Shown here piece by piece: positions 14,587 to 16,083 of a stretch of 64,000 nucleotides of DNA; positions within the stretch are counted from its first letter, which is position 1; every line of letters begins with the position of its first letter. The notes under the pieces were generated by a model. It had not been told where the DNA came from. It searched no databases and worked only from the letters and a program-made list of their open reading frames with translations. The position numbers were made by a program, and so were the translations under genes. Source of the DNA: an uncultured Campylobacter sp. (lineage in GTDB: Bacteria; Campylobacterota; Campylobacteria; Campylobacterales; Campylobacteraceae); contig CAURKB010000001.1 in assembly GCA_963525315.1 (NCBI GenBank), positions 16,801-80,800 on the forward strand, in the 5' to 3' direction.

Positions 14587-16083
14587 ATGATGTTTCAAGA
14601 TAAAATTTATGCGCCAAAGCGCAAAGATTTCGGCGTTTTAGCGGCGGTAAACGGGTGGGGTACGCGGGCGGATTTTGTAAATTTGACGGGCGAGAGGGTT
14701 TTAAATTTGGCAAACTCGAAATTTCATCTAAATTTAGTCGGCAAAACCGCGACGAATTTGACGGGCGAAACGGAGCCGAATTTGAGGCGGACAAATTTAA
14801 GCGCGCCCGGTGCGGCGTTTAGGCAAAACGAATGGGCAAATTTAACTCGCGCAAATTTAACCAAGCAAAACGCGCTGGTAAATTTGAACTCAAATTTGAG
14901 AGCGAGCAAGACGGCCGCGTCAAAAACGCTCGGGTTTTGCCAAAACGCGAGTCAAATTTACGCCAAAGATAAATTTGCAAAAACGAGCGTAAATTTAACG
15001 GCAAACGAAGCAAATTCGGGCGGGTTTTCGCGGGGTAAATTTAACGAAACCGCCGTGCGGGAGAGCGAACTAGGCGGCTTGCAAAGCGCAAATTTAACGC
15101 AGATAAAAACCGTCGATATCCACTCGCATTTACTGAGCTCGGACGTGAAATTCGACCGATTTTACGACAAACTAGCACTTGCGTTTTTCGCCAAAAAATT
15201 CGACATAAACAGGAGCGAGCTTATAAAAAACGGTTTTGAAGGCTACAAAAGTAACTTCGCGCGGCTGATTAAAAGCTCAAATTTCGTCCAAAAGTCCGTG
15301 GTTTTCGGCGTCGATGCGAAATTTGACGAGAGCGGAAACCTCATACACAAGGACAAAACCGTCTGCGCCACAAACGAGGATGTTTTTGCCTTTTACGAGC
15401 AAAATCCAAACGAGGTCGTGCCGTTTTTTAGCGTAAATCCAAACCGCAAAGACGCGCTAAATTTGATCGAAAAGTACCACAAAATGGGCTTTAAAGGCGG
15501 CAAGTTGCTGCAATCTTACTGGGAGACGGATCTAAACGATAAGCGATATGAGCCATATTTTAGGCTGCTTAGCGAGCTTGGGCTGCCGCTTGTTATCCAC
15601 GTGGGCGACGAAAACTCGCTAGCATCAAACAAGGCGCTTGAGAGCATCGAGCAGCTAAAATCCCCGCTAAATCTGGGTTGCCGTATCGTCTGCGCTCACA
15701 TGGGCGCCTCAAGCGACGGCGTTTTGTCCATGTTTTCGCGCGATCCGGAGAAACTAGGCGCCAACTACTTCACGCTACTTCGTTGGCTGCGCGAATTTGA
15801 CGGGCTTTACGCCGACGTTTCGGCGCTGCTTTGCATAAACAAGGCCCGTATCCTGCCGCACCTAAAAACCCAAACGCAAATCCACGACAAAATCCTTTTC
15901 GGCACCGATTTTCCCGTGCCTTTTAGCGTGATTTTAAGCAGCTACGACCTGCCGTTTCGCGAGCGACTGGCGCTAAATCGCATCCAAAATCCGCTAGATC
16001 GCTACGTGCGCGCGATGAGTTTGTATTTTGGCGAGGATTCGCCGATTTTTAGCAATTATAAAAAGATTTTGGGGGAGATTTAG
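14587..16083 (+). CDS. Amidohydrolase_2-family metallohydrolase with ~170-aa low-complexity N-terminal extension
   Basis: DIHSH, IHVG, AHMG, YADVSA, FGTDFP motifs in the C-terminal ~325 aa. Confidence 0.88.
   Translation: MMFQDKIYAPKRKDFGVLAAVNGWGTRADFVNLTGERVLNLANSKFHLNLVGKTATNLTGETEPNLRRTNLSAPGAAFRQNEWANLTRANLTKQNALVNLNSNLRASKTAASKTLGFCQNASQIYAKDKFAKTSVNLTANEANSGGFSRGKFNETAVRESELGGLQSANLTQIKTVDIHSHLLSSDVKFDRFYDKLALAFFAKKFDINRSELIKNGFEGYKSNFARLIKSSNFVQKSVVFGVDAKFDESGNLIHKDKTVCATNEDVFAFYEQNPNEVVPFFSVNPNRKDALNLIEKYHKMGFKGGKLLQSYWETDLNDKRYEPYFRLLSELGLPLVIHVGDENSLASNKALESIEQLKSPLNLGCRIVCAHMGASSDGVLSMFSRDPEKLGANYFTLLRWLREFDGLYADVSALLCINKARILPHLKTQTQIHDKILFGTDFPVPFSVILSSYDLPFRERLALNRIQNPLDRYVRAMSLYFGEDSPIFSNYKKILGEI

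Follow-up and report, generated by a model that had tools for sequence, protein, structure and literature searches.

An AAATTT-rich, in-frame extension of a Campylobacter amidohydrolase is probably one product of a DNA turnover that also enlarges spacers and dozens of further genes

The window analyzed here, a 64,000-nt stretch of DNA from an uncultured Campylobacter sp., contains an open reading frame at 14587–16083 (+ strand) encoding 498 amino acids, in which an N-terminal extension without Pfam match precedes an Amidohydro_2 core. The extension (14590–15102, +) consists of 171 in-frame codons with 18 RAATTY sites and is predicted to be disordered. The core (15103–16083, +) is a TIM-barrel protein with the DxHxH signature and is under strong purifying selection. 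It belongs to the Amidohydrolase_2 family (PF04909, E 8e-17, 62.4 bits vs. a cut-off of 26.4), and its best Foldseek matches were amidohydrolase-2 structures of the TIM-barrel fold. The first codon of the core, ATA at 15103–15105 (+), aligns with Met1 of short homologues and encodes an internal hydrophobic residue in the clade. Upstream lie a sigma-70-type promoter-like site, TTGACA-17-TATGAT (14534–14562, +), and the Shine-Dalgarno sequence AAGGAG (14579–14584, +). Both had been described in the initial annotation of this DNA; the ribosome binding site was confirmed, and the promoter is present, but with 11 of 12 consensus positions it is near-perfect rather than perfect. It was kept in 42 of 42 loci, which had been picked by a 12-mer overlapping it, and GGAG or GGGG was found at the Shine-Dalgarno position of all 42. 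Because the position of the first ATG reads ACG in 41 of these loci, it is the second ATG, at 14590, that represents the conserved start; the duplex energy ahead of it (–8.9) was the best among the in-frame starts scored.

In the clade the amidohydrolase gene is divergent from a MerR-family regulator gene (13809–14459, –) and has its own promoter. In short-form relatives merR lies upstream of the amidohydrolase gene and co-directional with it; in three of them the amidohydrolase gene abuts, after merR and on one strand, a large gene that is also found beside merR in the window (10330–13812) and that we take to be Aas-like. The merR, Aas-like and amidohydrolase genes were only 47–56% similar to their orthologues in the outgroup genome G104, a short-form relative (genome median 68%), and this low similarity may mean that the cluster either evolved fast or originated separately. 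Directly 3′ of the stop codon, an AAATTT-rich non-coding tract (16084–16254) served as frame control. Further downstream (16255–19121) are tandem TPM-domain genes, whose count and orientation vary among relatives; the gene ahead of them is presumably LemA-like.

The hand count of 18 RAATTY sites in 14587–15110 given in the initial annotation proved correct (15 AAATTT, 2 GAATTT, 1 AAATTC, and 0 GAATTC). The density in the extension was 35/kb, compared to a genome mean of 8.4/kb, and at least 18 sites were found in just 5 of 8010 overlapping 520-bp segments of the genome, the extension region being among the five. Parts of the extension had also been said to match non-coding DNA elsewhere. Positions 14678–14696 are indeed the exact reverse complement of 46669–46687 (–, 19 nt), inside an intergenic hairpin, and AATTTGACGGGCGA occurs at 14680 and again at 14755, with six copies genome-wide. 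The 19/20 match of 14599–14618 to 44280–44299 (–) was also recovered, but it is to the reverse complement of that segment. The hairpin itself (46650–46700) carries the motif at its center and lies downstream of a large oxidoreductase gene (46707–50309).

The core was present in 49 of 142 genus genomes, in 44 of them at 94–100% identity (hereafter the clade) and in five at 52–53%; named relatives group the clade with Campylobacter showae, among oral bacteria. The core is a normal member of its family; the 43 homologues at ≤53% identity among the matches listed (120 of 268) were all 325–341 aa long and had no extension, and outside the clade open frames did not exceed 364 aa in the 75 family genomes in which a match was found. 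Forty-two of the 44 clade loci reach the promoter; in the remaining two the contig ends first, with the frame still open. All 42 were in frame and stop-free, with 23 different lengths, while the +1 frame contained 6–23 and the +2 frame 4–12 stops. From metagenomes, 30 of 52 returned loci were examined, of which 24 contained the promoter word, four did not, and two lacked the core start. When distinct alleles were pooled, 59 of 59 were in frame and free of stops, with 27 lengths from 258 to 624 nt (86–208 aa). The alleles are related and recombining, and these counts are therefore not independent events.

In a codon-blind alignment, 75 of 78 indel alleles in the extension were multiples of three, whereas the 3′ flank, which is non-coding, had 8 of 18; since net lengths are all in frame, the three exceptions must be compensating gaps that were split by the alignment. 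Of the 43 nonsense changes that a single step could produce, none was seen, while 5.8–9.6 were expected. At the position of the old Met, the 42 genome loci read ATA (39), ATC (1), GTA (1), or CTA (1), and among metagenome loci CTT was found twice and ATG once, with no Shine-Dalgarno sequence ahead. These variable codons and the absent ribosome binding site contradict a translation start near 15100, which the initial annotation had named as a possible objection. The frame is thus kept through indels and stops are absent, as in translated DNA, and by this pattern the extension is very likely coding and likely translated as a disordered tail. AlphaFold gave pLDDT values below 50 for residues 1–170, although with the shallow alignment low values are expected for any orphan sequence. 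For annotators, long N-termini and loops of this kind are probably real coding sequence and not mis-called starts. Allele L253 carries ATG at the ancestral start, yet keeps an open extension of 414 nt, and 12 of 59 alleles have an ATG two codons ahead of the old Met position.

Similar material was found inside other genes. The window's genome (G000) was compared with G104, for which 1.2 of 1.97 Mb were covered, using simple ORF calls and orthologues of ≥40% identity. N- and C-terminal length differences were left out of the insert counts, as they are noisy owing to split genes and mis-called starts. The 732 orthologue pairs contained 43 internal inserts of at least 15 aa in 35 G000 genes (2303 aa, 18.4 RAATTY/kb); in the reverse direction, G104 had 15 inserts in 14 genes (371 aa, 16.2/kb), and the aligned parts of the pairs contained 6.6 RAATTY/kb. 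A second example lies in the window itself, where an AddB-like gene (57751–60342; the AddB match is weak) carries an 85-aa internal insert with eight RAATTY sites relative to the G104 orthologue (58477–58731, –). Scanning 24 host proteins with NCBIfam named, among others, glutamate racemase (MurI), TlyA, GluQRS, MnmC, heptosyltransferase II, HisIE, a hydrogenase protease, RecG, a NikD/E fusion and, weakly, AddB. The motif in the inserts shuns the frame in which TAAATT makes a stop (10 of 132), and no peptide shared among the inserts was found. Proteins of bacteria tend to be compact and subject to deletion pressure; in this lineage, 35 of the 732 genes compared together contain 2300 or more additional residues, the hosts including tRNA/rRNA-modifying, repair, and cell-wall enzymes. 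The intergenic fraction and the number of motif-dense tracts climb together, from 9.6% and 18/Mb in G104 to 16% and 68/Mb in G000 and 23% and 87/Mb in G012 (380 kb). The extension is the densest case of this lineage-wide process.

TlyA illustrates the pattern. Among the matches listed (150 of 414), it measured 235–257 aa in intact frames outside the clade and 366–388 aa in complete clade frames, and pN/pS in the inserts was 0.67 vs. 0.11. In G012 a TlyA frame of 633 aa (L213:1856–3754), about 2.6 times as long as the usual protein (238 aa), contains two long inserts and 28 RAATTY sites. Two clade genomes, G108 (C11:83889–84206) and G001 (C237:1834–2148), have the long amidohydrolase, yet just a 238-aa TlyA among the matches listed; allele replacement or bin contamination may account for this.

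As coding sequence, the extension might be a functional disordered region, serving solubility, localization, or proteolytic or translational control, which is selected as protein and in which the motif is a by-product of genome-wide codon habits. Every one of the 44 clade genomes that have the gene carries the extension, to the extent that their contigs cover it, and both ends are nearly fixed, with MF at the start and NL[TM]Q as last residues. The selection check suggested in the initial annotation gave a pN/pS of about 0.55, compared to 0.09 in the core: 0.54 (0.42–0.70) over 108 well-occupied of 291 columns in 40 complete loci, and 0.59 in motif-free codons (78 columns). These values are clearly below 1, and some protein-level constraint therefore exists; second codon positions were also less variable than third positions (0.135 vs. 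0.219, p 0.002). Against such a function, the length varies from 86 to 208 aa and whole blocks are absent from single alleles, net charge and composition are unremarkable, and the TlyA inserts behave alike, including their absence from the short TlyA of two clade genomes. No Pfam domain was found in the extension. A search among proteins of 273–870 aa returned 65 proteins, of which 64 carried the PF04909 mark and one (288 aa) had no Pfam mark, so that no homologue on any other protein type of similar length was found in this range. ESM Atlas, queried with residues 1–137 of the homologue P0028 as stand-in, gave no usable match, which shows neither absence nor novelty. Other hosts or distant taxa, strong purifying selection, and a fold, as expected of a conserved protein domain, were thus not seen, and the extension is no conserved domain of distant orthologues, which had been the other objection raised beforehand. 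We consider a protein-selected function rather unlikely; judging from these alignments, the extension is probably tolerated filler with little function of its own. N-glycosylation was considered as a function and rejected: the Campylobacter-type sequon is D/E-x-N-x-S/T, and none of the nine NxS/T sites has D/E at –2.

The conserved item, as far as the alleles tell, is the DNA word and not the peptide. In the seven Asn columns of the extension that lie inside motifs, AAT and AAC were used 266:0, while in the six columns outside the ratio was 29:168. The same choice is seen genome-wide, where Asn-Leu is written AAT-TTR 2273 times (421 expected) and Lys-Phe with AAG 79 times (806 expected); G104 has the same bias. 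AAATTT was enriched 16.8-fold (order-0) and 4.6-fold (order-1), and was the top hexamer by order-1 enrichment, while GAATTC was depleted to 0.36 of expectation. Among Glu-Phe pairs ending in TTC the GAA form was still favored (100:67 vs. 141:199). RAATTY density was 6.8/kb within ORFs, compared to 16.7/kb in the DNA that separates them. The flanks of the motif showed no palindromic correlation, and hence no extended palindromic consensus around it was found.

The initial annotation had proposed that new coding sequence arose here from spacer DNA. Lineage-specific new coding sequence, statistically like motif-dense spacers, is what we found: the share of repeated 16-mers was 0.10 in the extension, a median of 0.08 in dense spacers, and 0.02 in coding DNA. 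The step implied by that proposal, in which a motif-rich spacer (the 5′ untranslated region) was taken over at once by an upstream ATG while the old ATG decayed to ATA, fared less well. It would explain why the Ile at 15103 lies exactly opposite Met1 of short homologues, ATG to ATA being a single transition, and why one of 59 alleles (L253) has ATG at this site; moreover, the gene is rearranged relative to the short-form relatives, divergent and with its own promoter, and therefore presumably needed a new start. The mutation of the old Met is thus plausible, but it would look no different from growth directly downstream of an ATG that was kept. Motif-dense intergenic DNA, however, has a stop about every 15 codons (0.068/codon), which gives a probability of ~7e-5 for 137 open codons, and only 26 of 3180 frames were open over 255 nt. 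The GC content of the extension (46.8%) is coding-like and higher than that of dense spacers (37.9%). The insert material inside dozens of other genes shows that such DNA grows in frame by itself, and a start shift cannot explain it. One-step spacer capture is therefore unlikely; a short initial capture followed by growth is possible and is covered by the explanation preferred below.

A better fit is growth in steps, always in frame, through recombination at microhomologies of the motif. Alleles gain and lose blocks of 12–171 nt, and junction microhomology of at least 4 nt was found in 29 of 70 classes (random 5%), containing AATT in 15 of 70 (random 1.5%). A 96-nt gain in allele L016 is flanked by copies of the 13-mer whose double occurrence the initial annotation had pointed out, and resembles a block of allele L006. 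As best explanation, which we hold with fair confidence, the extension is a stop-free, AAATTT-rich addition to an ordinary amidohydrolase, likely grown stepwise by DNA turnover that also inflates spacers and dozens of genes. The gene would have moved out of the merR/Aas-like operon, acquiring a promoter and a start of its own. Segments of 12–171 nt would then be gained and lost, often at AATT-containing microhomologies as allele comparison shows, while amino acids drift, frame-breaking indels and stops stay absent, and the DNA motif is held at synonymous sites, all of which can be read from the alleles. The force favoring the motif itself would most likely be a bias, during natural transformation, toward taking up RAATTY-methylated DNA.

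A discrete mobile repeat of the MITE or Rickettsia palindromic element (RPE) type, inserted in frame and since decayed, could also leave short matches elsewhere. A genome-wide search, as had been suggested, showed that 16-mers of the extension recur above controls, in 24 clusters vs. 8–9 in shuffled sequence and 14–16 under stricter nulls (P 0.01–0.03), with 42% of the matches intergenic (background 16%), and one 19-mer sits in the hairpin described above. The matches are scattered over many loci, however, the longest exact one being ~22 nt, and 18-mers showed no excess over the strictest null (P 0.12). No single donor locus was found by k-mer search of all contigs, and the blastn matches listed (the first 25) were all on contig C1; from these comparisons, extension and genome have a common vocabulary and not one donor. 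In RPEs, too, DNA of non-coding type is read in frame within metabolic proteins that are not related to each other, but the parts of the source considered here describe discrete ~150-bp families with a conserved peptide (PMC10969869), whereas the inserts have no unit length, common ends, or conserved peptide. With the motif flanks also lacking palindromic correlation, we regard a mobile repeat as very improbable. Least credible of all is an untranslated leader, with translation from ATA 15103 or a nearby TTG/GTG and an open frame due to chance or gene calling: TTG 15079 has a purine-rich stretch upstream (–8.0), and the database protein P0067 (342 aa), known here from its protein record alone, is called from GTG at the 15055 position inside the extension, but TTG 15079 is found in just 26 of 40 alleles, the old Met position holds non-start codons, and the frame is kept in 59 of 59 alleles with 4–23 stops in each other frame.

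As for the force that favors the motif, the initial annotation had named a methylation motif as cause, and this is a lead only. C. jejuni imports only RAATTY-methylated DNA (PMC10046745) and M.CjeNI methylates RAATTY (PMC3526280), according to the parts of these papers we drew on; in C. fetus a RAATTY methylase is kept in all isolates (PMC13436318, in part). The genomes studied here resemble this CtsM/M.CjeNI (Cj0208) system of methylation-dependent transformation in motif class and in having one conserved D12-class methylase and a gene of the ComEC family; the difference is that the methylase of our lineage is a candidate, likened by class and database name. A single D12-class adenine methylase of ~364 aa was found in 99 of 121 family genomes (in G000 at L163:9980–11071, C33), and one C. 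showae member of this methylase family is annotated as EcoRI-like, which is a database name. In genus g25 it was detected in 0 of 14 genomes at E 1e-40, which makes this genus a natural control for motif enrichment. EcoRI_methylase (PF13651), tried as RAATTY methylase, was rejected; it was not found in G000, and 31 of 142 genus genomes contained it.

DNA curvature is a close rival. Intergenic AAATTT showed the 10–11-bp periodicity of curved DNA, being phased at 10.8 bp with an amplitude of 0.110 (maximum of 0.048 in 100 randomizations). AAATTT dominance, GAATTC depletion, and helical phasing are accounted for by A-tracts or curvature no less well than by methylation. Among the possible forces we give uptake drive the largest weight, though short of an even chance, DNA curvature or nucleoid binding a substantial one, and mutation or repair bias the smallest. 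Motif preference alone does not explain inflation, as G104 is as motif-rich as the clade genome (9.0/kb overall) and has few inserts; a further factor is therefore needed, either a weaker bias toward deletion or a greater amount of unequal recombination.

Uptake bias as molecular drive was proposed as a model by Findlay and Redfield 2009 (PMC2817400). As far as this source was consulted, the uptake sequences of Pasteurellaceae (USS) and Neisseriaceae (DUS) resemble AAATTT in the genome-wide excess of a short motif, the choice at synonymous sites, the raised encoded peptides, and the location in poorly conserved protein parts (PMC2817400). They differ in being 9–10-mers at ~0.8/kb, while here a 6-bp palindrome occurs at 8/kb and uptake bias would be by analogy. 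They also differ in their origin, which is through point mutation and homologous recombination rather than through insertion (PMC2817400), while here genes gain 15–400 aa in frame. We tentatively propose that methylation-dependent self-DNA uptake may act as a molecular drive that, beyond recoding genes, inflates them through motif-anchored unequal recombination, both in the lineage of C. showae and, as it appears, in a parallel case in another Campylobacter lineage. If true, thousands of new disordered residues would have arisen inside housekeeping enzymes, and the lineage would be a bacterial system for de novo coding sequence from a DNA-level force.

No published description of such motif-rich protein insertions was found in the literature searched, which consisted of papers accessible without subscription. 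The consulted parts of PMC10046745 and PMC3526280 contain none, and the consulted main text of a C. showae genomics paper (PMC6567213) had 0 matches for “motif,” “insertion,” or “AATT.” Low-complexity or disordered insertions in prokaryotic proteins are likewise fast-evolving, repeat-driven, lineage-specific extensions of housekeeping proteins, as far as the source was seen (PMC10120016), but what is repeated here is a DNA motif that also occurs in intergenic DNA and is conserved as DNA, rather than a string of amino acids. With more than 40 related genomes and hundreds of alleles, the lineage offers a testable case of neutral disordered sequence tolerated by enzymes, and bears on the origin of new coding sequence and on whether uptake-driven molecular drive alters genome and protein size. 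Disordered regions of Deinococcus are reportedly a comparable case of disordered additions in prokaryotic proteins.

Finally, a genome of another genus (G180), in which the amidohydrolase is short, had 11 inserts in 99 orthologue pairs within 320 kb, at 23.9 RAATTY/kb. Judged by sequence, this suggests inflation in parallel in the G180 lineage. The G180 inserts (L237–L252) contain QNS and ENS peptides, occur in the contexts TAAAATTTTA and GGAAATTCTA, and have some hosts in common with G000, such as HisIE.
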